DNA of 64,000 bases from Patescibacteria group bacterium (lineage in GTDB: Bacteria; Patescibacteriota; Patescibacteriia; SG8-24; DYFX01): contig CP129476.1 in assembly GCA_030583805.1 (NCBI GenBank), positions 117,453 to 181,452 on the forward strand, written 5' to 3'. The notes under the pieces were generated by a model that worked only from the letters and a program-made list of their open reading frames with translations, ran no database searches and was not told the origin of the DNA. Positions 38,768 through 63,258 of this stretch are shown in pieces. The first letter of the stretch is position 1. Each line of letters opens with the position of its first letter. Position numbers and translations under genes: made by a program.

Positions 38768-38983
38768 ATGTCCCGTTACCAGGCTTATCTTTTATCCCGT
38801 ATTTGGGGCGTCCGTCGCCACCATGTTTTGCGGCGCGCGAAATATCGCTGTGAGAAATGCGGAAGCGCGAATCCGCTGCACGTGCACCATAAGACGTACG
38901 AGAATATCGGAAACGAGCCGCTAAAAGACCTTATCGCTCTGTGTGTTGGGTGCCATTCACAGGCGCACGGTTTGCCCGTATAA
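38768..38983 (+). CDS. HNH endonuclease (small, stand-alone)
   Basis: CEKCGS...LHVHHKTYENIGNEPLKDLIALCVGCHSQAH HNH motif. Confidence 0.6.
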   Translation: MSRYQAYLLSRIWGVRRHHVLRRAKYRCEKCGSANPLHVHHKTYENIGNEPLKDLIALCVGCHSQAHGLPV

Positions 38984-39101
38984 TTGAAATACAACTGAAT
39001 AGTTATCCAGAGTACGGTGAGGGATATCGGCCCTACGACCCGTCGGCAACCAGGCTTCGGTCACGGTGCCTCCGACCCGAAAGGGGAAGATAATTCTTGA
39101 A

Positions 39102-39140
39102 TGGACTCTTCCTTGCAGGGGAGAGTTTTTCTCTTTATTA
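39102..39140 (+). terminator. possible rho-independent terminator downstream of HNH gene
   Basis: 8-bp stem ACTCTTCC/GGGGAGAGT (one G-U) followed by TTTTTCTCTTT. Confidence 0.3.
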
Positions 39141-39212
39141 GACGCACAAGAGTCGATATTTATTATGAAATTGACCGGTAAACACGTAATGCGAGTACCG
39201 TGGATAACTCTT

Positions 39213-39244
39213 GTTAAGTTTTGTTATGTCTACTGGTATAATCA
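39213..39244 (+). promoter_or_regulatory. putative promoter of R-M operon with extended -10 (TGgTATAAT)
   Basis: Perfect TATAAT preceded by TGG, 25 nt upstream of the MTase ATG. TTGTTA -35-like hexamers upstream. Confidence 0.35.
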
Positions 39245-39268
39245 GCCTAAAGATTAGGTAAATCTAGC

Positions 39269-40504
39269 ATGAGATTGATCACATTAAGAGAGGCCTCAGA
39301 AATTTTGGGCATGCATCCTAATACGCTTCGGAATTGGGAAAGATCCGGCAGGATTAAGTGCGTAAGGATCGGCGCTCGTGGCGACAGGCGCTTTGATTAC
39401 GACTCACTATTGGAAGTCGTGGGAAACGACCAAAGCTTTAAAAAAAAATATACATTGGTTGATCTTTTTTGCGGATGTGGTGGGCTCTCAAAGGGGTTTG
39501 AAATGACCGGATCGTTTAAAACCATTTTTGGTATTGATAACTGGAAGCCAGCATTGGAAACTTTTGAATTAAACCACCCTGAGGCGAGAGGGGTACAGTG
39601 GTCACTGGAGAAAAGAAATATAGATGCCCTAATTAAAGAGTTGGGTGAGTTTGATGTGGATGTCGTTGTGGGCGGACCACCATGCCAGGGATTCTCATTG
39701 GCAGGGCCTCGAAATTTCAACGACACAAGGAATTCTTTGTACCTCGGTTTCCTAAGGTTTGTTAAACAGACATCTCCCCGAGCTTTCGTTATTGAGAATG
39801 TTCCGGGCCTAGCCTCGCTTTACGGAGGCGTTGTAAAAGACCGGATCATTAAGGAATTCACAAAACTCGGGTACAACGTGATCTCTAAGGTTTTGCTAGC
39901 TTCGGACTATGGAGTCCCACAAAACCGCAGAAGGCTTGTATTCGTTGGAGTAAAGGGTGGAACTTTTAGTTTTCCCAAACCTACGCATGGTGAAAATTTA
40001 AAGCAGAAAATTACAGTGAATGACGCCGTTTCCGATTTGCCGTCATTAAGGAGTGAGTTGGGACAGGAGGTAATGCCTTACGGACAAAGAGTTAAGAATG
40101 AATTCCAAGAGTATTGCAGAAGAAATAGTGATCGGCTACATAATCATGTGGCCGCAAATCACGACGATGCTACCAGAAGAATAATCGCACTTGTTCCCGA
40201 AGGCAAAAATTATAAGTCTTTACCCGAAGTTCTAAGAGGCACGCGCAATTTTCATGTGGCGTGGACGAGGTTCGATGGTAGGTGCCCAGCTCCCACCATC
40301 GATACGGGCCACCGCCATCACTTCCACCACAAGGAAAACAGGGTGCCCACAGTCAGGGAATCAGCACGACTGCAGTCGTTTCCAGATGATTTCATCTTCC
40401 TTTCTTCCAAGACAAATCAATACAAACAGGTTGGAAATGCAGTTCCCCCGCTTTTAGCAAAGCAGATCGCGCTGTCTTTACTGGATTCATTTGATAAAAA
40501 ATGA
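39269..40504 (+). CDS. DNA (cytosine-5)-methyltransferase with N-terminal MerR/excisionase-type HTH domain
   Basis: HTH_17-like N-terminus (MRLITLREASEILGMHPNTLRNWERSGRIKCVRIG). m5C-MTase motifs I DLFCGCGG, IV GGPPCQGFS, ENV, QNRRR, RESARLQSFPDDF, GNAVPP. Confidence 0.9.
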   Translation: MRLITLREASEILGMHPNTLRNWERSGRIKCVRIGARGDRRFDYDSLLEVVGNDQSFKKKYTLVDLFCGCGGLSKGFEMTGSFKTIFGIDNWKPALETFELNHPEARGVQWSLEKRNIDALIKELGEFDVDVVVGGPPCQGFSLAGPRNFNDTRNSLYLGFLRFVKQTSPRAFVIENVPGLASLYGGVVKDRIIKEFTKLGYNVISKVLLASDYGVPQNRRRLVFVGVKGGTFSFPKPTHGENLKQKITVNDAVSDLPSLRSELGQEVMPYGQRVKNEFQEYCRRNSDRLHNHVAANHDDATRRIIALVPEGKNYKSLPEVLRGTRNFHVAWTRFDGRCPAPTIDTGHRHHFHHKENRVPTVRESARLQSFPDDFIFLSSKTNQYKQVGNAVPPLLAKQIALSLLDSFDKK

Positions 40505-40505
40505 C

Positions 40506-41936
40506 ATGAAAAAGATATACAGAGTTCCCGATGAGTATAATTTTCGACTGCACCACATCCGCCCCAGATTCAAAAATGACGTCGAGAACGTCTTGTTTTT
40601 CATGGCTTCTGAAATATCAAAAATTACTCCTGCGCCGGAGGAGGATTTTGCTAGAGAGTTGAACAAGGCTATCAGGCGCTACCCAGGCAATGCCTCCAAA
40701 GCCGAAAAAACAATTGATAATTGGCGGACCGAAATAACGGCTCTCTTTGGATTGATTGAATATGATGGTGAGATCGCAAGGCCCGGGCGAATGGCGAATT
40801 TACTGGCAGAATCTCAGGATTTGATCGAGTTTTTTCGCTATTTCCTATTTTACTTCCAATATCCTGGCGGCCATCTGAAACCCCACGAATCCTTGGAGTT
40901 TATCGAGGCTGGCGTACGTTTTAAACCGGCCAAGTATTTGTTGCAGGTGCTTTTAGATGGGAAAAAGATTTTGGGTGAAAACGCGAAGTTTGGCATAACA
41001 AAAGCCGAGGCTACTCACTGTATTTTTAACGACTTGCGAGTGACGCGTGATGGCCGTCCAGCAAACAAGACTGCCGAGTTGATTATTAGCAATAGAAACG
41101 ATAAGGCCGAATACCCTCAGGGAGGGGATATCGTTCGTTATGCCGGGGACATACTTGACTATATGGTGTTGGCGGATCTCGTTAGACTGAGACCGAACTA
41201 CAAATACTATTTGAATCCAGTGCATTTCGAGACCATACAGGCCTTTGTTGGAAATAATGACTATTTTGAACCATACGAGAGCTTGTATAAGCACGGACAT
41301 CCCTTGTTAGCCAATGTAACGGCATCCAAGGAAGATTGGTTTCATTATGTGAACAACAAACTTGATTCAAGTATATTTGAGGCGGACGCTTTTTCTATCA
41401 TTGAAGAGGCTGGTGAGACAGTTGACAGTGAAAAGGAAAGTTTCTTTATTGGCGAGGTCTTAAAAAAAATCCGGGATCTCAAAGAGTCGGAATCTATTAA
41501 CACCAAGGAGGTTGGAGATGTGGGCGAGGCCATCGTTATCGAACATGAAAAAAATAGAATGATGCGATTGGATCGCGAAAGCCTGCTGCACCTGATTAAA
41601 AAAATTCCAGAATCTTACGCGATGGGTTATGATATAAATTCATTTGAAGGCATCGGAGAAATACGAAGATACATTGAAGTCAAGACGAGTATAAGTCGAG
41701 GAAAACTTGCCGCGCAGTTTTTCCATATGACTCCCAGTGAATGGAGTTCTGCAGAGACGCTTAAGGATACCTACTTTGTGTACCGCTTAATGATCTCGGC
41801 GCAGGGCATCAGCCTTTTTCTAATACAGGATCCAGTTGGAAAATATAAGAGCGACCGCCTGAGCATGGCTCCTCGCGACGGTGCCGACATTCACTACACT
41901 GAGAGATCGGGCAACTGGGAAGAGCTTCTTGTATGA
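40506..41936 (+). CDS. candidate restriction endonuclease: novel N-terminal domain + C-terminal DUF3883 (PD-(D/E)xK-like) domain
   Basis: C-terminal about 150 aa fits the DUF3883 pattern (GDVGEAIVIEHEKNRM...GYDINSFEGIGEIRRYIEVKTS...FFHMTPSEWSSAE...TYFVYRL). Sandwiched between two m5C MTases with ATGA coupling to the downstream gene. Confidence 0.6.
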   Translation: MKKIYRVPDEYNFRLHHIRPRFKNDVENVLFFMASEISKITPAPEEDFARELNKAIRRYPGNASKAEKTIDNWRTEITALFGLIEYDGEIARPGRMANLLAESQDLIEFFRYFLFYFQYPGGHLKPHESLEFIEAGVRFKPAKYLLQVLLDGKKILGENAKFGITKAEATHCIFNDLRVTRDGRPANKTAELIISNRNDKAEYPQGGDIVRYAGDILDYMVLADLVRLRPNYKYYLNPVHFETIQAFVGNNDYFEPYESLYKHGHPLLANVTASKEDWFHYVNNKLDSSIFEADAFSIIEEAGETVDSEKESFFIGEVLKKIRDLKESESINTKEVGDVGEAIVIEHEKNRMMRLDRESLLHLIKKIPESYAMGYDINSFEGIGEIRRYIEVKTSISRGKLAAQFFHMTPSEWSSAETLKDTYFVYRLMISAQGISLFLIQDPVGKYKSDRLSMAPRDGADIHYTERSGNWEELLV

Positions 41937-42922
41937 GAGTGCGAAAAATTAAAATAGCTTCATTTTTTAGTGGATGCGGCGGTATGGATCTCGGTGTCGA
42001 GGGCGGCTTTTCTTTCCTGGAAAAAAAGTATCCTAGACATCCCACACAGACTGTTTTTGCGACTGATTATGATCAGAAAATTTCTGAAATATACAATCAG
42101 AATTTTCTCACCGATATTGTTGTGAAAGATATTAGAAATCTGGACGCTGAAGAAGTGCCAGACCACGATGTTCTTACAGGAGGGTTTCCATGCCAATCTT
42201 TTTCAGTTGTCGCGCAGAATCCGAAACGGCTCGGCTATAAGGATGTTAGAGGGCAACTGTTTTTCGAAATGTGCAGAATTCTGAGAGAGAAGAAGCCCTC
42301 GGTGTTCGTTGGAGAAAATGTAAAGGGCCTTTTGTCGGCGAATGGCGGAGAGGCGTTCCCTCTTGTGATCAAAGAGTTTGAGAATGCCGGTTACCATGTT
42401 AAGCACAAGGTTTTAAATGCGTCCCACTACGGGGTGCCCCAAAAGAGGGAAAGGGTATTTATTGTCGGTTTTCGAAGTAAAAAGGCTTTTGATTCTTTTA
42501 ACTTTCCTAAACCAACGACGGAGAACGGGCCCGTTCCGATTTCTTCCGTTGTCATCCCGGAAAACGAAGTAGAAAAAGTACACTACTTTAGCAAGAAAGC
42601 GATTCAAGGCCTGAGCCGTTCAAAAAATCATAAGCTGATGAATAAGGGCAGGGCCCAAAGATTGGACCAGCCTTGCAACACGGTTGGAGCACATCTGGCT
42701 AAAGTGAGTTTGAATAGCACGGATCCGGTACTCTGTTTAAAAGGAAAGTACCGGATGTTTACGCCACGCGAGGTTGCTCGAATCCAATCCTTTCCCGATA
42801 ATTTTGTGCTTTCCGGGTCGAGAACTGTTAACTATAAGGCGCTGGGTAACGCGGTTGCGCCGGTGGTGATGTGGCATGTGACAAGAGAAATCGTTAAGGC
42901 GCTCGGCGAGTACGGCAAGTAA
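41933..42922 (+). CDS. DNA (cytosine-5)-methyltransferase (second MTase of operon)
   Basis: Motifs FFSGCGG, GGFPCQSFS, ENV, QKRERVF, REVARIQSFPDNF, GNAVAPVV. Confidence 0.9.
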   Translation: MRVRKIKIASFFSGCGGMDLGVEGGFSFLEKKYPRHPTQTVFATDYDQKISEIYNQNFLTDIVVKDIRNLDAEEVPDHDVLTGGFPCQSFSVVAQNPKRLGYKDVRGQLFFEMCRILREKKPSVFVGENVKGLLSANGGEAFPLVIKEFENAGYHVKHKVLNASHYGVPQKRERVFIVGFRSKKAFDSFNFPKPTTENGPVPISSVVIPENEVEKVHYFSKKAIQGLSRSKNHKLMNKGRAQRLDQPCNTVGAHLAKVSLNSTDPVLCLKGKYRMFTPREVARIQSFPDNFVLSGSRTVNYKALGNAVAPVVMWHVTREIVKALGEYGK

Positions 42923-42923
42923 T

Positions 42924-43337
42924 ATGGCCGACATGTTCAGCAAGAAAAGACGGAGTGAAATAATGTCGAAAATTCGCTCAAAAAATACGGGCGCAGAACG
43001 TTTAGTGTTCAGGCATCTTCGTGCAAAAGGGTTGCACTTTCAAAAGCATTATAAAGGCGCTCCAGGCAGCCCTGATATCGCCTTGCCGAAGAAAAAGCTT
43101 GCGGTTTTTATCGACGGGGACTTTTGGCACGGAAGGCATCTGAACCGCCTCTTGGTAAAAGGTACAAAGAACTATTGGGTAATGAAAATCACGACCAACA
43201 TAAAACGGGATCGTCGCCAAAGAGCAGCATTAAAAAAAGGTGGTTGGAAGATCTTAAAGGTTTGGGAAAGCGACCTTAAACGTGTAAGTACAAGGTACGA
43301 CCAGCTATTAAAAGTTGAAAAGTTCATTAAAAACTAA
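42924..43337 (+). CDS. vsr: very-short-patch-repair endonuclease
   Basis: RSEIMSKIRSKNTGAE...PGSPDIALPKKKLAVFIDGDFWHG...GWKILKVWE Vsr signature. Starts 1 nt after the MTase stop. Confidence 0.85.
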   Translation: MADMFSKKRRSEIMSKIRSKNTGAERLVFRHLRAKGLHFQKHYKGAPGSPDIALPKKKLAVFIDGDFWHGRHLNRLLVKGTKNYWVMKITTNIKRDRRQRAALKKGGWKILKVWESDLKRVSTRYDQLLKVEKFIKN

Positions 43338-44880: not shown

Positions 44881-45011
44881 GGTTCATCCCACCGTAATCT
44901 CCCCATCCTTCACCCCCACCTTCACCGTCGACTCTTCTTTGACGGTACCTTCCAAGATTTGCAGCGCCAGTTTGTTGAGAATCACGTCCTGAATCAGCCT
45001 CTTGAGCGGGC
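44881..45011. repeat. clpB 3' end segment (direct repeat partner of 43367-43497)
   Basis: Forms the genuine C-terminal coding end of clpB. Similarity to the upstream copy ends at ...GAGCGGGCGG. Confidence 0.7.
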
Positions 45012-47499
45012 GGGCGCCGAAGCTGGGGTCGTAGCCTTTTTCGACAAGCAGCTTTTTGGCGGCGGCGGAAACGTCCAGCTTGATGTGCTTGTCCTTGAGA
45101 CGATCCTGCACGCGGGCGAGTTGGACGTCGGCGATCTTCGTCAGGTGTTCCATCTTCAGGGCGTGGAAGACGACGGTTTCGTCGACGCGGTTCAGGAACT
45201 CAGGCTTGAAGGATTGGCGCAGGAGGTTCATGACGCGGTCGTGGAGGGTTTCGTCGGCGCTCTTTTCCTCGTCGGCGTCTTCGAAGCCGATCGCGCCCTT
45301 CTTTTTGCCGAGCTCCAAGATCTCCTCGGAACCGACGTTCGAGGTCATGATGATGATCGTGTTCTTGAAATTCACGACGCGGCCTTTGCCGTCGGTCAGG
45401 CGGCCGTCGTCGAGGATTTGGAGAAGCGTATTGAAGACTTCCGGATGCGCCTTTTCGATTTCGTCGAAGAGGACCACCGAGTACGGGCGGCGGCGGATCT
45501 GTTCGGCGAGTTGGCCGCCTTCGTCGTGGCCGACGTAGCCGGGAGGGGAGCCGATCATGCGGGCGACGGAGTGGCGTTCGCCGTACTCCGACATGTCGAG
45601 GCGCACCATGGCGTTCTCGTCGTTGAACAGGAAGGCCGCCAGCGCTTTCGCCAGCTCGGTTTTACCGACGCCCGTCGGGCCCAGGAAGATGAAGGAACCC
45701 ATCGGACGGGTTTCTTCGCCCACGCCCGCGCGCGAGCGGCGCACGGCGTCGGAGACGGCTTTGATGGCCTCTTCCTGTCCGATCACGCGCTTTGAAAGTT
45801 CGGTTTCGAGCTGCACCAGTTTCTTCAGTTCGGACTCGAGCATTTTGGAAACGGGAATGCCCGTCCAGCGCGAAACGACGTTCGCCACGTCCTCCTCGTC
45901 GACTTCTTCTTTCAGGAAACGATGGCCCTTCTGGAGCTTCTTCAGCGTTTCCTCGGCGGCTTTGAGCGCCTTTTCAGTCTCCGGCACTTGGCCGTAGCGG
46001 ATCTTGGCGGCGAGCTCGAGGTCGCCCTTACGTTCGGCGATGTCGGCTTCCTGCTTCAGCTTGTCGATTTTCTTCTTGCCGTCGCGGATGGCGGAGATGG
46101 CGTCCTTTTCATTCTTCCAGCGGAGTTCCAAGCCGGACGCGCGCTCCTTGGCCTCGGCCAGGAGTTTCTCGACTTCCTTCAAGCGCACTTTGGCGTGCTT
46201 GTCTTCTTCTTTTTCAAGCGCGCGCTTTTCGATTTCAAGCTTGGTGATGCCGCGCTTCAGGGCGTCGAGCTCCTGCGGCTGCGAGTCGATCTGCATGCGG
46301 AGTGCGGAAGCGGCTTCGTCGATCAGGTCGACGGCCTTGTCCGGCAGGAAACGGTCGGTGATGTAGCGGTGCGACAAATTGACTGCCGCGACGATCGCGG
46401 AGTCGGTGATGCGCACGCCGTGGTGCAGGTCGTAGCGTTCTTTGATGCCACGGAGAATCGAGATGGCGTCTTCCGGCGACGGTTCATTGACCGTCACGGG
46501 TTGGAAGCGGCGAGCCAGAGCGCCGTCCTTCTCGATGTGCTTCTGGTATTCCTTGAGCGTGGTCGCGCCGATGCAGCGCAGTTCGCCGCGAGCGAGCGCG
46601 GGCTTCAAAAGGTTCGAAGCGTCCATGGCGCCTTCGGTGCCGCCGGCGCCGACGAGGGTGTGAAGTTCGTCGATAAACAAGATGACGCCGCCGGCCGATT
46701 TCTCGACTTCCTTCATGACGGCTTTGAGACGCTCTTCAAACTCGCCGCGGAACTTGGTGCCGGCGATGAGCGCGCCCAAGTCGAGCGCGACGACGTCTTT
46801 GCCTTTCAGCGATTCCGGCACGTCGCCCGAGACGATGCGCTGCGCCAAGCCTTCGACGATCGCGGTTTTACCGGTGCCGGGTTCGCCGATCAGGGCGGGA
46901 TTGTTTTTGGTGCGGCGCGAAAGGACCTGGATCACGCGGCGGATCTCCTCGTCGCGGCCGATGACCGGATCGAGCTTTTCGGCGCGCGCGAGGCGGGTGA
47001 GGTTGCGCGAATATTTTTCGAGCGCTTGGTAGGTGGCTTCCGGTTCGGTCGACGTCACGCGCTGCGAACCGCGGATGTCCATCAAGACTTTCAAAACGGC
47101 ATCGGTCGTGACGCCCATCTCGGCAAGCAGGGAAGCGGCCTCGTTTTTGGTCTCCATGAGGCCGAGCAAAAGGTGCTCGGTCGAAACGTATTCATCTTTG
47201 AAACGCTCGGCGATCTTGTGCGCTTGGCGGATGGCGCGGTCGAGGTTTTGCGAGACGAAAACCTGGGTCGTGTTGCCGCCCTCGGCCTTTTTCGGCGCCT
47301 CCAGCCTGGCGCGCTTCAAGACGGCCGCCGGATCGATCCCCAGTTTTTTAAAAACGGAAACAACCACGCCCTCTTCCTGGCGAAGGAGCGTGCTGAGCAG
47401 GTGGTTGGCCTCCAAGACCTGGGAACCGGCCTCAAAAGCCAGGTTTTGAGCCTCCTGGAGGGCTTCGAGGGCTTTGGTCGTAAAGCGGTTTTGTTGCAT
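44884..47499 (-). CDS. clpB: ATP-dependent chaperone ClpB
   Basis: 871 aa. N-domain [21 protein letters not shown]. Two AAA+ modules ([16 protein letters not shown]) and a coiled-coil middle domain. Confidence 0.95.
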
Positions 47500-47509
47500 G
47501 GAGGTGATA

Positions 47510-47536
47510 TTAGCACTCTCATAATAAGAGTGCTAA
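47510..47536. promoter_or_regulatory. CIRCE operator (HrcA-binding inverted repeat) upstream of clpB
   Basis: TTAGCACTC-N9-GAGTGCTAA is a perfect match to the CIRCE consensus. It ends 10 nt upstream of the clpB ATG. Confidence 0.8.
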
Positions 47537-47611
47537 TTTGGGTTGTCAAGACCGTCTTTTCAACGCAAGATGAAAAGAGCCCATCCACAACCACATGCAG
47601 GAGGTACGGGC

Positions 47612-48028
47612 ATGCTGGATTTGAAGGATTTTTTCAGCGAGCTTGGAAAGGCTCGCAAGGGCGTGTCGCAGGGCTGCAGTGCGACGTATCGCGCCGCCAT
47701 GACGCGCGTGCAGACGGCCATCATCGGTGCCATCAACAAGACGAACGGGCAGCTGCGCTCGCATGCCGATGCGGCCTTCGCCTACGTCGAAGGCCGCCGA
47801 CGGAATTGCCAGTCCGTGTCCGATCAGATCGAGCTCCTCTACGCCTTCTGGGAGGGCTTCAACCGCGGTTGGAGAGGCGCCCAGGCTTCCGGACCGGTCG
47901 ACGAGCACTACGACGCCGGATTCGACTTCGGCAAAGAGGGGAAGCTGCTGGTGCACGACTTCGGGGGCGAGATCACGCTCGATCTCGAACTCGATCTCGA
48001 CGACGATGATGATGACGATTCGGGATAG
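47612..48028 (+). CDS. hypothetical protein with poly-Asp C-terminal tail
   Basis: GGAGGT RBS 6 nt upstream of ATG. 138 aa ending in DLELDLDDDDDDDSG. Divergent from clpB. Confidence 0.5.
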   Translation: MLDLKDFFSELGKARKGVSQGCSATYRAAMTRVQTAIIGAINKTNGQLRSHADAAFAYVEGRRRNCQSVSDQIELLYAFWEGFNRGWRGAQASGPVDEHYDAGFDFGKEGKLLVHDFGGEITLDLELDLDDDDDDDSG

Positions 48029-48029
48029 C

Positions 48030-48057
48030 CCCCTCTCCGTGCGAGAGGGGATTTTTA
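48030..48057 (+). terminator. rho-independent terminator
   Basis: CCCCTCTC-cgtgc-GAGAGGGG hairpin + TTTTT. Confidence 0.5.
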
Positions 48058-52312: not shown

Positions 52313-53233
52313 CTAGGATTTCAGCTTGAAGAAGATCTTGTCGCCGAAGCGCACGTCGATGTAGTCCAGGTTCTTGCGATCAGGACCAACCTTGGTCTTC
52401 AGGATCGTCTGCGCGTTGTCGAGCTGCTCCGCGACCTCGCTGGACGCGTCCAGGTAGATCGCCCACCCTTCCGACGTCACGACCCGGAGCGTTTGGGCGT
52501 TGGCGCCGTCGATATGCGTCTCGGTGAGATATGGGGCGCGGTTGAAACGCGCGTCAAAAAGTTTCGGGAGGTCGATGACCGTCTGCACCGTCGCGGGGCG
52601 GACCGCCTGCTCTCGAAGCTTCAGCGTTTCATTCTTATCGTTAAAGAGGACGGGATACGGGGCGCGTACGCGTCCAAGCTGCTCGTCGAAGGTCGGACCG
52701 AGCCTGGGAACCACGTCGAGCGCCTCTCCGGCCTTGTAGAGCCTCGTGACGGTTCCTTGGAGATCAACCATGGCCTGGCTGCCATCAGGAAGCTGTACCA
52801 GGACCGCGGAGATGCGTTCCGTAAGGTCGATGACCAGCGTGTGCGGCGGACGTTTCGTGACGACCAGCGATTCGAGCACGAACCGTTCTTGGAGTGAGGC
52901 GACCAGGTCTTCTTCGGAAACGACCAAGATGCTCGCTTTCGGAAAAAGCAGCCATCGGCGACCGCTCAGCGTCTCTTTCACGGCGTCTTGAATCTCCCAC
53001 GACGGAATGCGGTCAGTGCCGTTGACTTGGATATCCGTCACGCGGAAGTTGGCCGAAAACGCGAGAAACCAGATCCAGCCGCCGGTCGCCAAGAGGCCGA
53101 TGGTGACGAGAAGGCGTCCGCGCCAGCGCCTGCGGTCCGCCTCGCCATGGCGCGCCGGCTCGAACAAGGGATTGGAAAAGGATTTGCGCGAGTAGTCGCG
53201 GCGGACGCTGCGCGTGCGAATCCAGCGGCTCAT
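52313..53233 (-). CDS. ftsQ: cell division protein FtsQ/DivIB (POTRA)
   Basis: Single N-terminal TM followed by POTRA-like region. Terminal gene of the ddl-containing cluster. Confidence 0.75.
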   Translation of the reverse strand: MSRWIRTRSVRRDYSRKSFSNPLFEPARHGEADRRRWRGRLLVTIGLLATGGWIWFLAFSANFRVTDIQVNGTDRIPSWEIQDAVKETLSGRRWLLFPKASILVVSEEDLVASLQERFVLESLVVTKRPPHTLVIDLTERISAVLVQLPDGSQAMVDLQGTVTRLYKAGEALDVVPRLGPTFDEQLGRVRAPYPVLFNDKNETLKLREQAVRPATVQTVIDLPKLFDARFNRAPYLTETHIDGANAQTLRVVTSEGWAIYLDASSEVAEQLDNAQTILKTKVGPDRKNLDYIDVRFGDKIFFKLKS

Positions 53234-54300
53234 ACGGAGGTTTTCAGCCGCTTGCGGCGCGCCTGGCGCTCAAGCGCCAACCGGACGAGACGGTCGATCA
53301 GTTTCGCATACGGCAGCCCGGAAGCCTCCCAGAGCTTCGGATACATGCTGATCTTGGTAAAACCGGGAATCGTGTTCACTTCGTTGACGACGAATGTGCC
53401 GTTCTTTTTCATGAAAAAATCAACGCGCGCCATGCCTTCAAGTCCGAGCGTCTTGAAGGTACGCACCGCCAGCGTTTGGGCTTTGCGCATGACGGAGCTC
53501 GAGAGCTTGGCGGGAATCATGAGGCCGGCGCCGTTCTCATCAAGATACTTCGCTTCGTACGAATAAAAATCGTGATGCGGGATGACTTCGCCGGCCACGG
53601 AGGCTTCCGGCGTTTCGTTGCCAAGGACGGCAACTTCAATCTCACGGCCGACGACGGCTTCCTCGATAAGAATCTTATCGTCGTACGAGAAAGCGTTTTC
53701 AATCGCGGCGCGCAGCTCCTTGTCGTTCCCGGCCTTGGCGACGCCGACGGACGAGCCTTGGTTGGCCGGCTTCACGAAGACGGGCTTGCCGAGGCGTTTC
53801 CAGACGATCGGAAGCTTCACCGTCTCTCCCCTGCTGAACGTCAAAAAATCAGCAACCGGAATTCCAGCATCGCGGAGCAATCGTTTGGCGACGTCTTTGT
53901 CCATGCCGACGGCGGAACCGAGAATATCCGGCCCAACGAACGGCAGGTCGAGCATGCGAAGCAGTCCCTGGATGCTGCCGTCTTCGCCGTAGGTGCCGTG
54001 GAGGACGGGGAAGATAACATCGATGGGTCCAATCCCCTCGCGCCCCGGCCTCAGCATCAGCTCTTTCGTTTTTGCGACGTTGATGGCGATCTTTTTGGGA
54101 TCAGCGGCGTGTAAGAGATACGACTCCCCTGCCGCGCCCAACCAGCGGCCGTCTTTGCCGATGCCGATCAGCGAAACGTCGTAGCGATTCTTGTCGATGG
54201 CATCGACGATGCTGCGCGCCGACAGCAAAGAGATTTCGTGTTCGGACGAGCGTCCGCCGAAAAGAATCCCGAGGCGGATTTTGCGCTTCGGCGTTTTCAT
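53230..54300 (-). CDS. ddl: D-alanine--D-alanine ligase
   Basis: IRLGILFGGRSSEHEISLLSA N-terminus. ATP-grasp core. Confidence 0.9.
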   Translation of the reverse strand: MKTPKRKIRLGILFGGRSSEHEISLLSARSIVDAIDKNRYDVSLIGIGKDGRWLGAAGESYLLHAADPKKIAINVAKTKELMLRPGREGIGPIDVIFPVLHGTYGEDGSIQGLLRMLDLPFVGPDILGSAVGMDKDVAKRLLRDAGIPVADFLTFSRGETVKLPIVWKRLGKPVFVKPANQGSSVGVAKAGNDKELRAAIENAFSYDDKILIEEAVVGREIEVAVLGNETPEASVAGEVIPHHDFYSYEAKYLDENGAGLMIPAKLSSSVMRKAQTLAVRTFKTLGLEGMARVDFFMKKNGTFVVNEVNTIPGFTKISMYPKLWEASGLPYAKLIDRLVRLALERQARRKRLKTSV

Positions 54301-55439
54301 ACGAGCTTGCGCGGCAAGAGCGGATTGATGCGCGTCACGATTTCGTAATTGATGGTATCGAGATGGTGGGCGAGATCGTCGGCCGTGACGGCAACGCGGC
54401 CGTCTTCGCCAAGCAAGATGACTTCATCCTCGGCGCGCACGTCCGGAATATCCGTCACGTCGATCATGCACATGTTCATGCAAACGCGGCCGAGTACTTT
54501 GGCTTTGCGTCCGCGCACCACGACTTCGCCGACGGACGAAAGCCCGCGGTCATAGCCGTCCCAGTAGCCGACGCCGAGCACGGCAACCTTGCCGGTGCGC
54601 GGCATCTTCTCGGTGAGGCCGTAGCTCACGGGCGTGCCGCGTTTTACGTCTTTCACCTGCGCGATCGTCGTTTTCCAGGCGAGCGCGGGCTGGAGTTCGA
54701 TCTCAAGTCCTTTTGCCTGCGCGCCCAGTCGCGTTTCCAACGACGGCCACAAGCCGTAGAGGCCGATCCCGACGCGTACCAGATTGAAATGGGTGTCAGG
54801 ATAAAGCACGGCCGCGGCCGTGCAGGCGGTGTGTTTCACGTCGGGGTGAAAACCGTGGGCCTCCAAAATTTCAAGCGCGTTTTGATAGGTCTCGAGCTGG
54901 CCGGCCGCGTAGTCGTGGTCCGTCGCGTCCTCGATATTGGCGTAATGCGTTGAAAGCCCTTCGAGCACGAGATGTTTCGCGCTCTTGATCATCTCGGCGA
55001 TGTCCGGAAGCTCGCGCAGTTCCGCGCCTTGGCGCGTCGTGCCTGTTTCCGCTTTGACGTGGAGATAGCCGCGCTTCGCAGCCTTCTTCGCGGCGCTTTT
55101 GGCGGCGTGTACCTGCTCGCGCGTCGAAACGGTCATGCGGAGCCCGGCGCGGATCGCGTCCTGCATGCGCCAGGAAGGCGTAAAACCAAGAATCAGGATC
55201 GGTTTCTTGATGCCGGCTTTGCGGAGCGCGAGACCTTCGTCGACGTTGTCGACGCCGAACCAGTCGAGATGCGGCTGCACGGTTTTCGCAACCTCTACGA
55301 GGCCGTGACCGTAGGCGTTCGATTTTACGACCGCCATGACGGCGACAGAGGCGCCCGCCCGACGCTTAAAAATCTTGGCGTTCGAAACCAAGGCGTTTTT
55401 CGAGATTTCCACCCAGGTTTTGGGGCCTCCTTTCCCCAT
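54297..55439 (-). CDS. alr: alanine racemase
   Basis: PLP-lysine motif AVVKSNAYGHG. Confidence 0.9.
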   Translation of the reverse strand: MGKGGPKTWVEISKNALVSNAKIFKRRAGASVAVMAVVKSNAYGHGLVEVAKTVQPHLDWFGVDNVDEGLALRKAGIKKPILILGFTPSWRMQDAIRAGLRMTVSTREQVHAAKSAAKKAAKRGYLHVKAETGTTRQGAELRELPDIAEMIKSAKHLVLEGLSTHYANIEDATDHDYAAGQLETYQNALEILEAHGFHPDVKHTACTAAAVLYPDTHFNLVRVGIGLYGLWPSLETRLGAQAKGLEIELQPALAWKTTIAQVKDVKRGTPVSYGLTEKMPRTGKVAVLGVGYWDGYDRGLSSVGEVVVRGRKAKVLGRVCMNMCMIDVTDIPDVRAEDEVILLGEDGRVAVTADDLAHHLDTINYEIVTRINPLLPRKLV

Positions 55440-55442
55440 ATG

Positions 55443-56708
55443 TTATTTGCCGATATGCGTTTTGCCGCCCATCCATGGACGCAGGACTTCCGGAATACGG
55501 ACCGTACCGTCGGCTTCCTGGCAGTTCTCGAGAATGGAAATAAGAATGCGGCCGATTGCGAAAGCCGTGCCGTTCAGCGTGTGCACGTATTCGCGCTTTT
55601 GCGTTTCAGGATTCTTCCAGCCGATGTTCAAACGGCGGGCTTGGAAGTCGGTGCAGTTCGAGGTGGAGTGCGTCTCCCGGTACGTCTGTTGCGACGGGAT
55701 CCACGTTTCAAGATCCCACTTCTTCGCGGCCGGCGTGCCGAGGTCGCCCGAGCAGATGTCGAGCACCTGATACGGCAAGCCGAGACCGCCGAGCAGCTCT
55801 TCTTCGCAGGCGAGCAAAAAGGCGTGCTCCGCTTCAGAATCAGAGGGCTTGGTGAACGAGAACATCTCGAGCTTGTCGAACTGATGGACGCGCAGGATAC
55901 CTTTCGTGTCCTTGCCGTACGAGCCAGCCTCGCGTCGGAAGCAGGTCGAGAAAGCGACGTAGCGGATGGGTTTCGACACGTCGAGTGTTTCATCCATATG
56001 CATCGGACCGACGGATTGTTCCGAGGTACCGACGAGGACGAGCGGATCTTGCTGGATCTGGTAGATCTCGTCGCCGTGCTTGTCCGAGTAACCCATCTTC
56101 TCCATGACGTCGGGCTTGATCATCACGGGCGGCACGACGGGGCTGAAACCTTTTGGTACGAGTGTTGAAAGCACGTACTGCACGAGCGCGAATTCCATCA
56201 TTGCGCCGTCGCCTTTCAAATATCCGAAACGCGAGCCGGAAACCTTGGCAGCGCGCTCCGTGTCGATAATGTCGAGCGATTCGCCGAGCGCCATATACTC
56301 CTTGGCCTCGAACGAAAACGCCGTCGGCTCCCCTACCGTGCGCGCCACGACGTTCTCCGTGTCGTCCTTGCCGACGCGCACGTCGGGAAGCGGCAGGTTC
56401 GGAATATCGCGAAGCAAAACATTCTGCGCCTCTTCAGCCGCCTTCAACTCCACATCGATTTCCTTCATCCGCTCTTTCAAGGCCTTCATCGCTTCAAGCG
56501 CCGAGGCTTTGGCGTCCTTGTCGGTTTCCTTGGCGATCTTTTCTCCCGCCTGGTTCTGCTCGGCGCGCATCGCCTCGATTTGGCCGATCAGCTTTCGGCG
56601 CTTTTCATCGGCCTCCAAGAGCGCGTCGACATTCACGTCAACGCCTTTGGCGGCAGCGCCTTTCTTCACGAGTTCCGGGTTTTCGCGGACAAAATTCAGG
56701 TCGAGCAT
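55443..56708 (-). CDS. serS: serine--tRNA ligase
   Basis: MLDLNFVRENPELVKK N-terminal coiled-coil arm. Class II core. Confidence 0.9.
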   Translation of the reverse strand: MLDLNFVRENPELVKKGAAAKGVDVNVDALLEADEKRRKLIGQIEAMRAEQNQAGEKIAKETDKDAKASALEAMKALKERMKEIDVELKAAEEAQNVLLRDIPNLPLPDVRVGKDDTENVVARTVGEPTAFSFEAKEYMALGESLDIIDTERAAKVSGSRFGYLKGDGAMMEFALVQYVLSTLVPKGFSPVVPPVMIKPDVMEKMGYSDKHGDEIYQIQQDPLVLVGTSEQSVGPMHMDETLDVSKPIRYVAFSTCFRREAGSYGKDTKGILRVHQFDKLEMFSFTKPSDSEAEHAFLLACEEELLGGLGLPYQVLDICSGDLGTPAAKKWDLETWIPSQQTYRETHSTSNCTDFQARRLNIGWKNPETQKREYVHTLNGTAFAIGRILISILENCQEADGTVRIPEVLRPWMGGKTHIGK

Positions 56709-56709
56709 A

Positions 56710-57102
56710 TCAGCGGTTCAGGAGCGAAGATTTGTAGGTTTCAGGTTGAAAGGCGGAAAGCCGGATGATTTCGGCCTTGAGGCCGCGTTCGGCAAGCACG
56801 ACTGGGAGCTTCTCCGTGAACGCTTCCTGGTCGTAGCCCAGGCAGATCACGTCGGGCTTCATTTCGCTAAGAATAGCGTATTTATCGCCGGTGCTCCCGA
56901 GAATGGCATTGTACCCGGCAGCGATGAGATCGGCCAGGCGCGCATCTTCGTTTCTGCGCGGGGCGCGCCCCTTCACCTTCTCGACCGTCGCGTCGCGGGC
57001 GACAACGACCGTGAGATCGCCGTGCGAGGCCGCAGCGTCGAGATAAAACTTGTGCCCGGGGTGAAAGCCGTCGAATGTGCCGAAGGCGATGGCTTTAGGC
57101 AT
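56710..57102 (-). CDS. cytidylyltransferase-fold nucleotidyltransferase (RibL/TagD-like, HxGH motif)
   Basis: FGTFDGFHPGH motif. 130 aa. Confidence 0.55.
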   Translation of the reverse strand: MPKAIAFGTFDGFHPGHKFYLDAAASHGDLTVVVARDATVEKVKGRAPRRNEDARLADLIAAGYNAILGSTGDKYAILSEMKPDVICLGYDQEAFTEKLPVVLAERGLKAEIIRLSAFQPETYKSSLLNR

Positions 57103-57931
57103 AGAGCTTTCGGATCAGCGCGGTTATGGTTTTCAGCGTGAACGCCGTCCGCACCGGCGTCGGCGCCACGAGGTCTCCGTGCAGGAGCATGCGCTTGGAA
57201 TGGTGAAGATACCACTCGCTCTCGGGTTCGGCGGCGCGGACGGTCTTTGCGAGACGGGAGAGATCGAACTTCGAGCTCGGTGCCGCCCGCACGTGCAGGT
57301 AGCGGCGCGACGGGTGTTCAAGGACGACAAGCGCGTACCCGAGCTCCGCCGAGATCGTGCTGGCCATGCCGGGCAGCATCGCCGAGCGCACGGCCACGCC
57401 CTTTCCGTGTTTCGTAGCGAACGCCGTGCCGCGGCGGATCGCGCGCAAAGCCTCTTCACGCTCGACGTACAGCGCGAACAAGGCATCCATCAAAACGAAT
57501 CCCCAGCCGGTCGCCATGAGCGAATCTCCGCCGGGAAGTCCCGCGATCGTCTGCAAAATTTTCGTATCGTTGCGGAAGTGGCCCGGCGTTCCGATGCCGC
57601 TTCCCATATCGCCGCGGCGCACGTCATCGACCAAGGCCGCGAGCGCCTTGCCCTCCGCGCCGCCCGGCAGCTTTCCTCGGCGTTTCAAATCTTTCCACAC
57701 CAAGCTCGCCGCGGAGTCCTTGAGGTCGCCCTTATGCTCGTCGTATTTCCCGCGGCCGATGCCGATGCCGATCTGTCCGGCAGGCAGCTTCACGCCGCCG
57801 GCGGATGTCGGGACGAATTCGATGTTGGCTTTTCGGAGCGACGGTTCAAAGCGCTTTAAAAGCCACAAACCGGCGACATCGTCGCGGTGCGGGAAGAGAT
57901 GCGTGACAAGCGTACTAGTCTTCTTTGCCAT
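57095..57931 (-). CDS. hypothetical protein, tentatively UPF0160/MYG1-like metal-dependent hydrolase
   Basis: THLFPHRDD and GRGKYDEHKGD resemble the MYG1 THDGTFHCDE / GGEYD..HRYDHHQ segments. Weak. Confidence 0.35.
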   Translation of the reverse strand: MAKKTSTLVTHLFPHRDDVAGLWLLKRFEPSLRKANIEFVPTSAGGVKLPAGQIGIGIGRGKYDEHKGDLKDSAASLVWKDLKRRGKLPGGAEGKALAALVDDVRRGDMGSGIGTPGHFRNDTKILQTIAGLPGGDSLMATGWGFVLMDALFALYVEREEALRAIRRGTAFATKHGKGVAVRSAMLPGMASTISAELGYALVVLEHPSRRYLHVRAAPSSKFDLSRLAKTVRAAEPESEWYLHHSKRMLLHGDLVAPTPVRTAFTLKTITALIRKLYA

Positions 57932-59414
57932 CGTCGTGCGAAGACGGCTGCTCCGGTCGGAGCGTCGGGAACAAAATAACTTCCTTGATCGAATGCGCGC
58001 CCGTGAGGAGCGCCGTCAAACGGTCGATGCCCATGCCGAAACCGGCCGTGGGCGGCATGCCGTATTTGAGCGCTTCGACGAAGTCGGCGTCGGCCGGCAT
58101 CGCTTCCTCCGAACCCGCTTCGGATTTGCGCGCCTCTTCCATGAAACGCGCTTCCTGCTCGAGCGGATCGTTCAGCTCGTTGTAGGCTTTGGTGACTTCG
58201 ATGCCTTGGACGAGCAGCTGGACCGAGGCGATGCGGTCCGGCTGGTCGGGCTTGCGCTTGGCGAGCGGGATCATCTCGGCCGGATAGTCGATGACGAACG
58301 TCGGCTGGACGATCTTCGGGCGCACGTACGTTTTGTAGAGCGCGTCGACGCATTCGCCGAAGCCGTGCAAGTTGTCGGCGTCGATCTTCAAATTTTTCTC
58401 GGCCAGCGCTTTTTTCAGCGACGCTTCGTCGCGCACGCTTTCTAGGTCGATGCCCGTCCCCTCTTTGATCAGATCGTAAAATTTCTTGCGCGGGTACGGG
58501 CCGGAAAAATCGAGCGTCACGCCGTCGCGCTCGACCGTCATTTTGCCGCCCTGCGTCGCCGAAACGATGCTGGAGACAAGGCGCTCGGTGAGGTTCATGA
58601 GATCCTCGTAGGTCGCATACGCCCAGTAGAATTCGACCTGGGTGAATTCGGGATTGTGCTGGAAGCTGATGCCTTCGTTGCGGAAGCAGCGCGCAACTTC
58701 AAAGACTTTCTCGAAGCCGCCGACAATGAGGCGCTTCAAGAAGAGCTCCGGAGCGATGCGCAGCTGGAGGTCGAGATCGAGCGCATTGTGGTGCGTAGTG
58801 AACGGACGCGCCGCCGCGCCGCCGGCTTGCGTTTGCAGAATCGGCGTCTCGACTTCCATGAAGCCTTCGCCATGCAGGAAATCGCGGATGGTGCGCACGA
58901 CCAGGCTGCGCGTGCGGAAAATGCCGCGCACGTCCTCGTTGGCGATCAGGTCGAGATGGCGCTTGCGGTAGCGGATTTCCACGTCCGACAGGCCGTGCCA
59001 CTTTTCCGGCATCGGCAAGAGCGCCTTCGAAAGCAGGCGCCAGGAACGGGCTTCGAGCGTTTTTTCGCCGCGCTTCGTGAGGAACAGCACGCCCTCGGCT
59101 TCGATGAAATCGCCTAGGTCGATCGCGGCGCCGAAGCGTTCGAACGATTCCGCGCCGATCGTGTCGAGTTTGAGGTGCAGCTGCAGTTTGCCGGATTCGT
59201 CGGCGAGGTCGGCGAAAGCCGCTCCGCCGTGGATACGGATCGCGCGGACGCGTCCGGAGAGCGTGATCGTTTTTTGCTCGCCGCTCCAGGCGTCAAAATG
59301 CGCCACGGCCTGGCTGCAGGTCGCGGTGCGGCGCGCGTCGGCCGGATAGGGGTCCGTACCCGCCTTGCGCAGCTGTTCGGCTTTGTCGCGCCGGACGATT
59401 TCCTCTTCGAGCAT
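57915..59414 (-). CDS. lysS: lysine--tRNA ligase (class II)
   Basis: OB-fold anticodon-binding domain + class II motifs (FRNEG). Confidence 0.9.
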   Translation of the reverse strand: MLEEEIVRRDKAEQLRKAGTDPYPADARRTATCSQAVAHFDAWSGEQKTITLSGRVRAIRIHGGAAFADLADESGKLQLHLKLDTIGAESFERFGAAIDLGDFIEAEGVLFLTKRGEKTLEARSWRLLSKALLPMPEKWHGLSDVEIRYRKRHLDLIANEDVRGIFRTRSLVVRTIRDFLHGEGFMEVETPILQTQAGGAAARPFTTHHNALDLDLQLRIAPELFLKRLIVGGFEKVFEVARCFRNEGISFQHNPEFTQVEFYWAYATYEDLMNLTERLVSSIVSATQGGKMTVERDGVTLDFSGPYPRKKFYDLIKEGTGIDLESVRDEASLKKALAEKNLKIDADNLHGFGECVDALYKTYVRPKIVQPTFVIDYPAEMIPLAKRKPDQPDRIASVQLLVQGIEVTKAYNELNDPLEQEARFMEEARKSEAGSEEAMPADADFVEALKYGMPPTAGFGMGIDRLTALLTGAHSIKEVILFPTLRPEQPSSHDDGKED

Positions 59415-59415
59415 A

Positions 59416-59877
59416 TCAGCAGGTGATGTCCAAAATTTCGTAGGTCGTCACGGAACCGTTCGGCATGACGTTCTCGAAGCGCTCCCCTTTCTTGCGGCCC
59501 AGGAGGGCGATGCCGATCGGCGATTCGTTCGAGATTTTTCCGGCGGAGGGATCGGACTCCTTCGGGCCGACGATGTGGTACTCCTTTTCTTTCTCCCCCG
59601 CCTTGCAGCGCACGCGGCAACCGACGTTTACGACTTCAGTGGACGTCGGGGCGGATACGACGGCGCGGGCGATAAAGCTCTCGAGCTCTTGGATGCGGCC
59701 CTCCATGAAGGCGAGCGCGTCCTTCGCGTCGTGGTACTCCGCGTTTTCGGAAAGGTCGCCCAAGTCCTTGGCTTTGGCGATACGGTCGGCGATCTCAAAA
59801 CGGCGGACGTTTTTGAGCTCATCGAGCTCCGCCCGCATCTTTTCGAGACCCTCTTTGGTGGTGAGATACGACTTCAT
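59416..59877 (-). CDS. greA: transcription elongation factor GreA
   Basis: MKSYLTTKEGLEKMRAELDEL...DLSENAEYHDAKD GreA coiled-coil. ATG 59877 preferred over TTG 59892. Confidence 0.9.
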   Translation of the reverse strand: MKSYLTTKEGLEKMRAELDELKNVRRFEIADRIAKAKDLGDLSENAEYHDAKDALAFMEGRIQELESFIARAVVSAPTSTEVVNVGCRVRCKAGEKEKEYHIVGPKESDPSAGKISNESPIGIALLGRKKGERFENVMPNGSVTTYEILDITC

Positions 59878-59912
59878 AAAATCCGGTCGCAAAGCGATCG
59901 TTTACCACCGCA

Positions 59913-61934: not shown

Positions 61935-62454
61935 GTGAGAGGAATGTTTTTTGGAAACGACGGCTTAGCAGGCTCCCGACGCCGATGTATGCCAAGAGCG
62001 CGCCGCCCGCCACGAGGCTTTGGCGGACCGGTGCCAGAAGCGCCGTGGCGGACAGGTCGATAAGCACGGGCACCCCGCCGAAAAGAACGTTGACGCCATC
62101 GAGCGCGGCAAGCGTGAACCATCGGATGGTCGCCGCTGCGGCGGCGATCAGAAACAAGGCGGGCGTACCGGTATTCGTAACGACGCGCTGAAAAAGAAAG
62201 CGCGTTGCGAAAAACGCAACGAAAAGGGCGAGCATTTCGGAGCCGAAGCCGAGGAGGCCGTGCAGGTCGAGCAATAGGCCTCCCAGAAGCGCCCAGCCGG
62301 CCGAAATGACGGGGCGGTCGCGTACGATGCCGTACGCGATCGCGACGATCGGCAACGAAATGGCGGAAAACGGAAACGGCAGCTGTGAGAGAAAGCTGAT
62401 CTGCACGATCGTGCCGACGACCGCCAGCGCCGCATGAAGCAAGAACTTCCACAT
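61906..62454 (-). CDS. mreD: rod shape-determining protein MreD
   Basis: 182-aa polytopic membrane protein between mreC and mrdA. Confidence 0.7.
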   Translation of the reverse strand: MWKFLLHAALAVVGTIVQISFLSQLPFPFSAISLPIVAIAYGIVRDRPVISAGWALLGGLLLDLHGLLGFGSEMLALFVAFFATRFLFQRVVTNTGTPALFLIAAAAATIRWFTLAALDGVNVLFGGVPVLIDLSATALLAPVRQSLVAGGALLAYIGVGSLLSRRFQKTFLSHAPHAFSRH

Positions 62455-62455
62455 A

Positions 62456-63256
62456 CTACGGGAACGGGATCGCGACGACGTCGAGGCGGTCGAGCGCGAT
62501 CGGCGTGGTAATCGTGGCCGTCTTGAACGGGCTCTTTTCCTGGGTTTCCACGGCCGTGATGCGACCGATTAAGAGTCCTCGCGGCGTCATCGGTTCGATG
62601 CCCGAGGTGATGATCATGTCCCCCGTCGTGATCTCCTCGTTCTGCGGGATGAGGCGCATCTCGAGGCTGAGACCGCGCTTGCCTTGGATGACGCCTTGCG
62701 TGCGAGCGGAATTTTGGACGGAAGCTCCGACGCGGCTGCGCGTATCGGTGAGCAGGAGTGCGATCGATGTCGTGCGCTCGGCCTTAAAAATCTTGCCGAT
62801 CAACACGCCGTCCGAAGCCACGACGGGCATGTCCGGGGCGATGCCGTCGTCGGTTCCGCGATCAAGCAGGATTGTATGCGTTCCCGCTTCCGGCGTACGC
62901 GCGAGCACGCGCGCGATGACCGGGGTTTTTTTAAGCTTTTTCGTGTAACCGAGCAGCTTTTCCAGCTCCGCATTTTCTTCCTGGACGGTCGTAAGACGCG
63001 CGACTTCGACTGAAAGCGCGGCGTTTTCGGAACGCAACGCGTCGTTCTCCTGCAAGACGGCGTTGATGCGGAACGGCGCGCTCATGGTCGCGCGAAGCGA
63101 GCGCCCGGCTTCGGCAAGCTTTGCCTCCTGGCCGGCGATTTTTTTAAGCATCCAGGCTTCGGCGTTCGTCGTGACGCCAAGGAGGTGCAGGAAAAAAAGC
63201 AAACCGCCCGCGGCGGCGATCAGGATGATCAGGCGGGATCGGGCGACAGGCGTCAT
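62456..63256 (-). CDS. mreC: rod shape-determining protein MreC
   Basis: N-terminal TM. Coiled coil. Beta-rich C-terminus. Confidence 0.8.
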   Translation of the reverse strand: MTPVARSRLIILIAAAGGLLFFLHLLGVTTNAEAWMLKKIAGQEAKLAEAGRSLRATMSAPFRINAVLQENDALRSENAALSVEVARLTTVQEENAELEKLLGYTKKLKKTPVIARVLARTPEAGTHTILLDRGTDDGIAPDMPVVASDGVLIGKIFKAERTTSIALLLTDTRSRVGASVQNSARTQGVIQGKRGLSLEMRLIPQNEEITTGDMIITSGIEPMTPRGLLIGRITAVETQEKSPFKTATITTPIALDRLDVVAIPFP

Positions 63257-63258
63257 GA

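Follow-up and report, generated by a model that had tools for sequence, protein, structure and literature searches.

A perfect CIRCE element overlapping the predicted clpB promoter in a Patescibacteria genome related to Uhrbacteria

The clpB locus and its genomic setting

The 64-kb stretch of DNA analyzed here (hereafter the window) belongs to a reduced genome of the candidate phyla radiation (CPR, Patescibacteria), which is related to Uhrbacteria and has a G+C content of 60%. The minus strand of the window carries a clpB gene, and a small gene of the opposite orientation starts on the far side of the intergenic region preceding it. The features of this region and of the two genes are as follows.

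44884-47499, minus strand: clpB coding sequence, 871 aa, assigned by the ClpB equivalog, Pfam domains and N-terminus alignment
47500-47516, minus strand: predicted clpB 5' leader of about 15 nt, lacking a Shine-Dalgarno (SD) sequence and pyrimidine-rich (UAUCACCUCC before the AUG), placed from the position of the -10
47510-47536, no strand: CIRCE operator, perfect match with none by chance, kept upstream of clpB in relatives; in clpB orientation, upstream arm 47536-47528, spacer 47527-47519, downstream arm 47518-47510
47521-47526, minus strand: predicted clpB -10, TATTAT, inside the 9-nt CIRCE spacer (consensus scan)
47544-47549, minus strand: predicted clpB -35, TTGACA, 7 bp upstream of CIRCE (consensus scan)
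47543-47571, plus strand: candidate weak promoter of the divergent gene, TTGTCA-17-CAAGAT, read from the sequence
47599-47604, plus strand: SD of the divergent gene, AGGAGG, 7 nt before its ATG, kept in the window and at the related loci L001, L002 and L004
47612-48028, plus strand: divergent ORF, 138 aa, with a poly-Asp tail and of no known family
48030-48050, plus strand: terminator-like hairpin and T-run, with an 8-bp stem containing 6 GC pairs, then ATTTTTATTC

The clpB product scores 1277.3 bits against the NCBIfam equivalog TIGR03346, above the cut-off of 1232.1, and contains the Pfam domains Clp_N, AAA, AAA_lid_9, AAA_2 and ClpB_D2-small. It is a full-length ClpB disaggregase with the N-domain, the middle domain and both AAA+ modules. 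In an alignment with Escherichia coli ClpB (1KHY), the two proteins correspond from residue 2 of each, and a longer N-terminus is excluded because an in-frame TAG is present at 47535-47533, within the upstream arm of the CIRCE element; the ATG at 47499 is thus the true start of clpB. An NCBI protein named Patescibacteria group bacterium is identical to this ClpB. Copies of this ClpB with 96% identity are found in Patescibacteria MAGs, including that of L001, and an exact-protein look-up placed the strain of the window also in the sequencing run SRR24881069. The next relatives share 60-67% identity, and most of them bear the names Candidatus Uhrbacteria, Magasanikbacteria or Parcubacteria in their titles. 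Several contigs (L002, L004, L007, L010, L013 and others) encode a ClpB with 89-96% identity to the one in the window and are deposited as "uncultured Gammaproteobacteria bacterium", and L005, whose ClpB is 67% identical, bears the title "Acutalibacteraceae". The titles of the MAG records among the clpB relatives are clearly unreliable as taxonomy.

Two other regions of the window were recorded. In the region 38769-43337, a restriction-modification cassette of low GC content (0.45-0.49) encodes an HTH-C5 methylase, a BpuJI-like endonuclease, a second C5 methylase and Vsr. A SAM-I riboswitch aptamer (RF00162; 39000-39096, plus strand), which scores 49.6 bits where the gathering score is 44.4, separates this cassette from a small HNH-like ORF and has a terminator-like hairpin and T-run behind it. 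It is unusual to find an S-box ahead of DNA methylases, which consume SAM. A TATAAT of its own immediately precedes the first methylase, and the riboswitch may therefore be an orphan. On the other side of clpB, a run of co-directional ORFs occupies the minus strand from 52313 to 63990; the ATG-start genes of this run lack an SD core, and its first ORF (52313-53233) shows a weak match to the FtsQ-type POTRA domain (PF08478, E = 7.5e-05).

A perfect CIRCE element abuts the clpB start codon

On the plus strand, positions 47510-47536 read TTAGCACTC-TCATAATAA-GAGTGCTAA, an inverted repeat with a 9-nt spacer that agrees with the CIRCE consensus TTAGCACTC-N9-GAGTGCTAA at all 18 arm positions. A pattern search permitting up to three mismatches recovered this single match in the whole 64-kb window, and none of 100 dinucleotide-preserving shuffles of the window contained any match at the same tolerance. 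A preliminary description of this DNA had called the repeat a perfect CIRCE, and the call is borne out by these counts. It had also placed the end of the repeat 10 nt from the clpB ATG. This distance is correct, the gap being UAUCACCUCC (47509-47500), and the 11-nt string that was quoted for it had taken in the last A of the arm. Thus, on the mRNA strand of clpB, the elements follow each other in the order TTGACA-ACCCAAA-TTAGCACTC-TTATTATGA-GAGTGCTAA-TATCACCTCC-ATG.

The operator is merged with the predicted clpB promoter

A scan with the sigma-70 consensus, which is not validated for CPR bacteria, returned TTGACA-17-TATTAT on the clpB strand as the sole promoter-like site between 47300 and 47800. 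This site matches 11 of the 12 consensus positions, against 0.1 such matches expected in a 500-nt region, and is one of only two sites of that quality in 20 kb; the scan of 47300-47800 yielded no second promoter upstream of clpB. The -35 hexamer precedes the repeat, and the -10 hexamer falls within its spacer. The distance from a -10 element to the transcription start is usually 6-8 nt, and the start of clpB is predicted at about 47514-47517, inside the downstream arm of CIRCE. CIRCE overlaps both the -10 and the predicted start of clpB, a chaperone/protease-type heat-shock gene. The leader would accordingly be short rather than absent, with a predicted start 14-18 nt upstream of the AUG. Since the -10 lies inside the spacer, transcription initiating in the repeat or immediately beyond it would be expected under promoter occlusion and would not refute control by the operator.

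The usual regulators of clpB in Actinobacteria and Firmicutes are HspR, which acts via the HAIR element, and CtsR. Both the HAIR element (CTTGAGT-N7-ACTCAAG) and the CtsR direct repeat are absent from the vicinity of the clpB promoter. All matches to either in the window have 3 mismatches and a position remote from clpB, and they are no more frequent than expected by chance. Control of clpB by HspR/HAIR or CtsR was rejected, as neither has an operator near the gene.

Conservation of the arrangement in relatives

We compared 80 clpB loci from species-representative genomes, each with up to 10 kb of flanking sequence on either side. CIRCE elements with up to three mismatches are present in 24 of these, always as one copy per locus and always 3-173 nt upstream of clpB, with 11 being perfect; none was found elsewhere in the 80 loci, flanks included. 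In the 28 closest loci, the element is directly upstream of clpB in 22, while in the more distant Patescibacteria it is mostly missing from clpB. As a control, 300-nt windows were drawn at random from the clpB loci, and in 364 of 365 of these the best CIRCE match had at least 5 mismatches. The arms carry 1.8-1.9 bits per position as opposed to 0.2-0.3 bits in the flanks; these loci were picked for having CIRCE, which makes the value for the arms circular, and the comparison shows only the divergence of the flanks.

The closest relatives also share the layout of the window, namely TTGAC[AT], a gap of 7-8 nt, CIRCE, and a -10-like hexamer in the spacer, which takes the form TATCAT, TATGAT, TATAAT, TATACT or TACAAT. 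TTGAC[AT] stands at the spacing seen in the window in L001-L004, L007, L008, L011, L013, L016 and L020. A second group (L010, L018, L019, L022, L028) displays a different arrangement, in which a full promoter lies just upstream and CIRCE begins at about +1. The preliminary description had tied the operator to clpB. This link is strengthened by the recurrence of the element upstream of clpB in the closest genomes and by the presence of the same layout before hrcA-grpE-dnaK and groESL (see below).

The divergent gene

The preliminary description had also noted a poly-Asp tail on the product of the gene at 47612 and had suggested that CIRCE could gate it. The 138-aa ORF does end in such a tail, its C-terminus being DLELDLDDDDDDDSG, and has no match in Pfam or NCBIfam. 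Homologues in the same position are confined to the closest clade (L001, 54%; L002, 41%; L004, 35%). In all four genomes, AGGAGG is found 6-8 nt before the ATG, and in the window this is one of only two SD cores among the 35 genes considered below. The hexamers of the candidate promoter, TTGTCA (47543-47548) and CAAGAT (47566-47571), are kept with their 17-nt spacing in the window, L001 and L002, and L004 has CAAGCT at the second position; the consensus scan did not call this promoter, the -10 of which matches the consensus at three of six positions. Together with the hairpin and T-run that follow it, the ORF looks like a fast-evolving, monocistronic unit with its own terminator.

The strongest rival to control of clpB is that CIRCE mainly controls this poly-Asp-tail gene, or that it controls both genes equally via a shared bidirectional region. 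Apart from the persistence of the candidate promoter in the window, L001 and L002, this reading draws on the position of its -35, which overlaps the clpB -35 by 5 bp at a distance of 7 bp from CIRCE, such that the two promoters cannot be occupied together. Moreover, with its footprint of 30-40 bp (PMC7464140), bound HrcA could extend to the divergent promoter. However, CIRCE is located before the divergent -35, where an operator is poorly placed to repress, and the divergent -10 has the weak consensus match described above. Further, the divergent gene is restricted to the window, L001, L002 and L004, whereas CIRCE accompanies clpB in 22 of the 28 closest genomes. We therefore regard this alternative as unlikely. 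The conserved target of CIRCE is clpB, because the CIRCE-clpB link extends far beyond the genomes with the divergent gene and because CIRCE is upstream of the divergent -35. Some coupling of the divergent gene and clpB is nevertheless possible, either via promoter competition or via the edge of the repressor footprint.

The leader and a possible role of CIRCE in RNA

In Bacillus subtilis, CIRCE-containing leaders contribute at the RNA level, through mRNA stability or masking of the start. By analogy, CIRCE in the window could act mainly in RNA, if it formed a 9-bp hairpin in a longer leader that lowers mRNA stability or masks the start codon. Such a hairpin would end 10 nt from the AUG, and in the second group of relatives, where the promoter is fully upstream and CIRCE extends from about +1, the whole repeat would be transcribed. 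But in the window and its closest relatives, the sole promoter-like site has its -10 in the spacer, and only the downstream arm would enter the transcript; no second upstream promoter was found to supply the longer leader. The predicted leader itself does not fold significantly (z = -0.54), an equal or better fold being reached by 58 of 200 shuffles, and it has no Rfam match with E < 3. A mainly RNA-level role of the element is thus quite improbable in this genome.

The wider regulon

Beyond clpB, a scan of metagenome contigs with the pattern TTGACW-N7/8-CIRCE yielded at least 120 loci, which were picked by the pattern itself and are mostly without a taxon. Among the 120 matches listed, the nearest downstream gene is hrcA in 26 (usually as hrcA-grpE-dnaK), clpB in 22, dnaK in 14, groES(-groEL) in 12, and a Clp ATPase without the middle domain in seven; in 36 the gene after CIRCE is unknown or the contig ends. 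The CIRCE spacer holds a -10 match of at least five of six positions in 85 of the 120 matches listed. The hrcA genes among these matches start at a median of 10 nt after CIRCE, and none has an SD core. A long contig provides a clear instance of this layout: in the 842-kb Patescibacteria contig SCUM01000001.1, an hrcA-grpE-dnaK-dnaJ operon is preceded by TTGACC-N8-TTAGCACTC-TACAATAGG-GAGTGCTAA, with TACAAT in the CIRCE spacer and 11 nt from CIRCE to the ATG of hrcA. At the level of the lineage, CIRCE is thus found before the other regulon members, the hrcA/dnaK operon and groESL.

Several variations on the clpB theme were encountered in these contigs. SCUM01000001.1 also encodes, 7 kb downstream of the hrcA operon, an 869-aa Clp-like ATPase with an atypical N-terminus (L203:17954-20563); we rejected it as a ClpB orthologue, given that its 43% identity is limited to the second AAA+ (D2) module, and it lacks a CIRCE. 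A ClpC-like ATPase, which aligns to ClpB residues 33-430 and 543-867 and lacks the middle domain, is likewise behind a promoter-embedded CIRCE at L084, L091, L095, L103, L131, L175 and L184. At L104:1052-1277, CIRCE and clpB are separated by a 226-nt leader with about five tandem copies of the 21-nt unit gggaatgacaaaaagagggac.

A short form of HrcA in the lineage

The HrcA proteins from the metagenome loci are mostly 223-251 aa long, compared with 343 aa in B. subtilis, and those of the Uhrbacteria-like CPR are about 225-245 aa (L139:359-1051, L203:10001-10708, P0121-P0240). The short form aligns to residues 1-124 and 233-329 of the B. subtilis protein, and the stretch matching residues 125-232 is missing; we take this stretch to be the inserted dimerizing domain of the Thermotoga maritima HrcA structure (1STZ). 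PF01628 was recovered in both short proteins tested and PF03444 in one of the two. The AlphaFold model of a short HrcA has a pLDDT of 90 and superimposes on 1STZ with a TM-score of 0.82 normalized by the query and 0.60 by the target. In a profile search with the short HrcA, the best 150 representatives at 50% identity were all 213-298 aa in length. The nearest database relatives of the GC-rich HrcA of L139 are labeled Candidatus Uhrbacteria or Patescibacteria group bacterium. On this comparative evidence, the Uhrbacteria-like lineage possesses HrcA and, at the classical targets, the same predicted operator embedded in the promoter.

In the window and in the CPR flanks of the 80 clpB loci, tblastn found no hrcA, groEL, dnaK or grpE; the queries were the B. 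subtilis proteins and, in a second round, 20 complete HrcA ORFs taken from metagenome loci, mainly of the short CPR type. hrcA was also not found in 6 kb of sequence adjoining the window on its left side. No contig with both a short hrcA and a CIRCE-clpB was found among the HrcA and ClpB matches compared, and none of the ten most GC-rich-looking matches to the short-HrcA profile (1.84 billion representatives searched) was on a recognized contig. These negative results would fit a loss of hrcA from the genome, with CIRCE persisting as a relic or being read by another factor. Yet the arms remain perfect at 18 of 18 positions here and in ten other genomes with fully diverged flanks, which indicates ongoing selection on CIRCE, and short HrcA homologues are abundant in the lineage. 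Furthermore, the absence of hrcA from an annotation would mean little: several copies of the short form are deposited as "hypothetical protein", and its score of 174.5 is below the cut-off of 197.2 of the NCBIfam family TIGR00331, so that a keyword search for hrcA would give a false negative. We accordingly judge the loss of hrcA to be very improbable and predict that the gene is present elsewhere in this genome.

Translation of clpB without a Shine-Dalgarno sequence

The preliminary description was right that clpB has no SD sequence: the 10-nt gap (47509-47500) contains no GGAG, GAGG or AGGA, and no GGAGG-type core lies 4-15 nt upstream of the start codon. It had presented this absence as noteworthy and the string CACCUCC in the gap as anti-SD-like, and neither point gains support. 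An SD core at -18 to -4 is present in just two of the 35 ATG-start genes of the window, as against 10% of random windows, and in five of 58 genes of a cruder gene set. The absence at clpB is not special because SD cores are rare genome-wide. The G content at -10 to -1 of the window genes is 20% compared with 30% overall. Few genes have a strong SD, namely those at 47612, 51616 and 43569, the last of these being at the edge of the low-GC island. In Parcubacteria, just 48% of the 16S genes have been reported to contain the anti-SD motif (PMC9297842). The clpB leaders of the relatives are also devoid of an SD and are U- or C-rich, and CACCUCC is not kept even in sister genomes, with L001 having CCACUCC, L002 CACUUUCCC and L004 CCCCUUUUCC. 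The missing SD is accordingly the norm of the genome, and CACCUCC is best read as part of a G-poor leader.

It is hardly credible that clpB has a special mode of translation in which the leader with CACCUCC acts as a functional mimic of the anti-SD or as an RNA thermometer: the string does equal the 3' end of 16S rRNA and can pair with a GGAGG at codons 16-18 in the minimum-free-energy fold, but this pairing is missing from the centroid structure, the fold is matched or bettered by the shuffles noted above, the string is not conserved in L001, L002 and L004, and the leaders of this genome are as a rule G-poor and devoid of an SD. A structured leader or RNA thermometer at clpB was likewise rejected, there being no significant fold, no Rfam match and no conservation of the leader sequence.

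Discussion

Taken together, the CIRCE element upstream of clpB very probably serves as the operator for a heat-shock repressor of the HrcA type and is fused to the clpB promoter, which HrcA would occlude and from which it would be released under protein-folding stress. Binding of an HrcA dimer to both arms would block access to the -10 region and the start site, thereby keeping RNA polymerase off the promoter. As unfolded proteins accumulate, for instance upon heat shock, HrcA would lose its activity and the clpB promoter would fire. In B. subtilis, GroEL keeps HrcA active and is titrated away by unfolded proteins, and release of HrcA here may proceed via GroEL titration on the same model. The resulting transcript, with a leader of about 15 nt and no SD, would be translated by the initiation mode that is normal for the genome. 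In this scheme, clpB would be a core member of a compact HrcA regulon in the Uhrbacteria-like CPR, next to hrcA-grpE-dnaK and groESL. The mechanism, as proposed, is an ordinary HrcA-CIRCE switch, and what is new is the lineage in which a known arrangement is found.

Comparison with characterized systems brings out both shared and distinct features. With the B. subtilis regulon, the locus has in common the identical 9-N9-9 repeat, and the hrcA-grpE-dnaK and groESL operons of the CPR lineage also carry CIRCE. In B. subtilis, CIRCE follows the start site and precedes a start codon with an SD, and clpB is not known from the genome; in the present locus, by contrast, CIRCE falls within the promoter, clpB is the target and an SD is missing. 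A closer parallel in terms of the target is offered by Mollicutes such as Mycoplasma gallisepticum and Spiroplasma melliferum, in which clpB carries CIRCE and belongs to the HrcA regulon along with dnaK (PMC4245973, PMC5138195). As stated in the preliminary description, clpB under CIRCE control has been known mainly from such mollicute-type reduced genomes; the published cases are from Mollicutes, and the window adds a probable one from Patescibacteria. The two share the operator consensus before clpB, a reduced genome and few transcription factors. They differ in that the present genome is from Patescibacteria and GC-rich (60%), the -10 is nested in the operator spacer, the predicted leader is about 15 nt long, lon was not seen among the targets, and the HrcA of the lineage is truncated to about 230 aa. 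With respect to operator placement, the nearest counterparts are the footprinted HrcA operators of Campylobacter jejuni and Helicobacter pylori, which overlap the core promoter and start and repress by occlusion (PMC7464140), much as the operator described here extends over the core promoter and predicted start site. Those operators are CIRCE-like but degenerate and act along with HspR, and clpB in these organisms is under HspR alone (PMC7464140). Here, unlike in C. jejuni and H. pylori, CIRCE is perfect and no HAIR site is present.

Several of these peculiarities could be facets of a single, stripped-down circuit in the Uhrbacteria-like CPR, a proposal to which we give about even chances. It would combine an operator that doubles as the promoter, with the -10 in the CIRCE spacer and the -35 located 7-8 bp upstream of CIRCE, near-leaderless mRNAs without an SD (hrcA, clpB and often dnaK), and a minimal HrcA of about 230 aa that does without the inserted dimerizing domain of about 110 aa and is missed by current annotation rules. 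clpB would be a core member of this circuit. If true, the circuit would amount to a form of the HrcA system not yet described and to the first reconstruction of a transcription-factor regulon in this part of the CPR. In the literature searched, we found no discussion of HrcA in Patescibacteria, the two terms co-occurring only in an oral-microbiota survey.

More generally, the CPR/Patescibacteria make up a large share of bacterial diversity, and to our knowledge almost nothing is known of gene regulation in them. At a practical level, the scarcity of SD cores means that SD-based calling of start codons will mislead in the genome of the window. The CIRCE site and its counterparts in relatives furnish a concrete regulon hypothesis (hrcA-grpE-dnaK, groESL, clpB), as well as a promoter model, TTGACA-17-TATNAT, for a lineage with no known cultured members.
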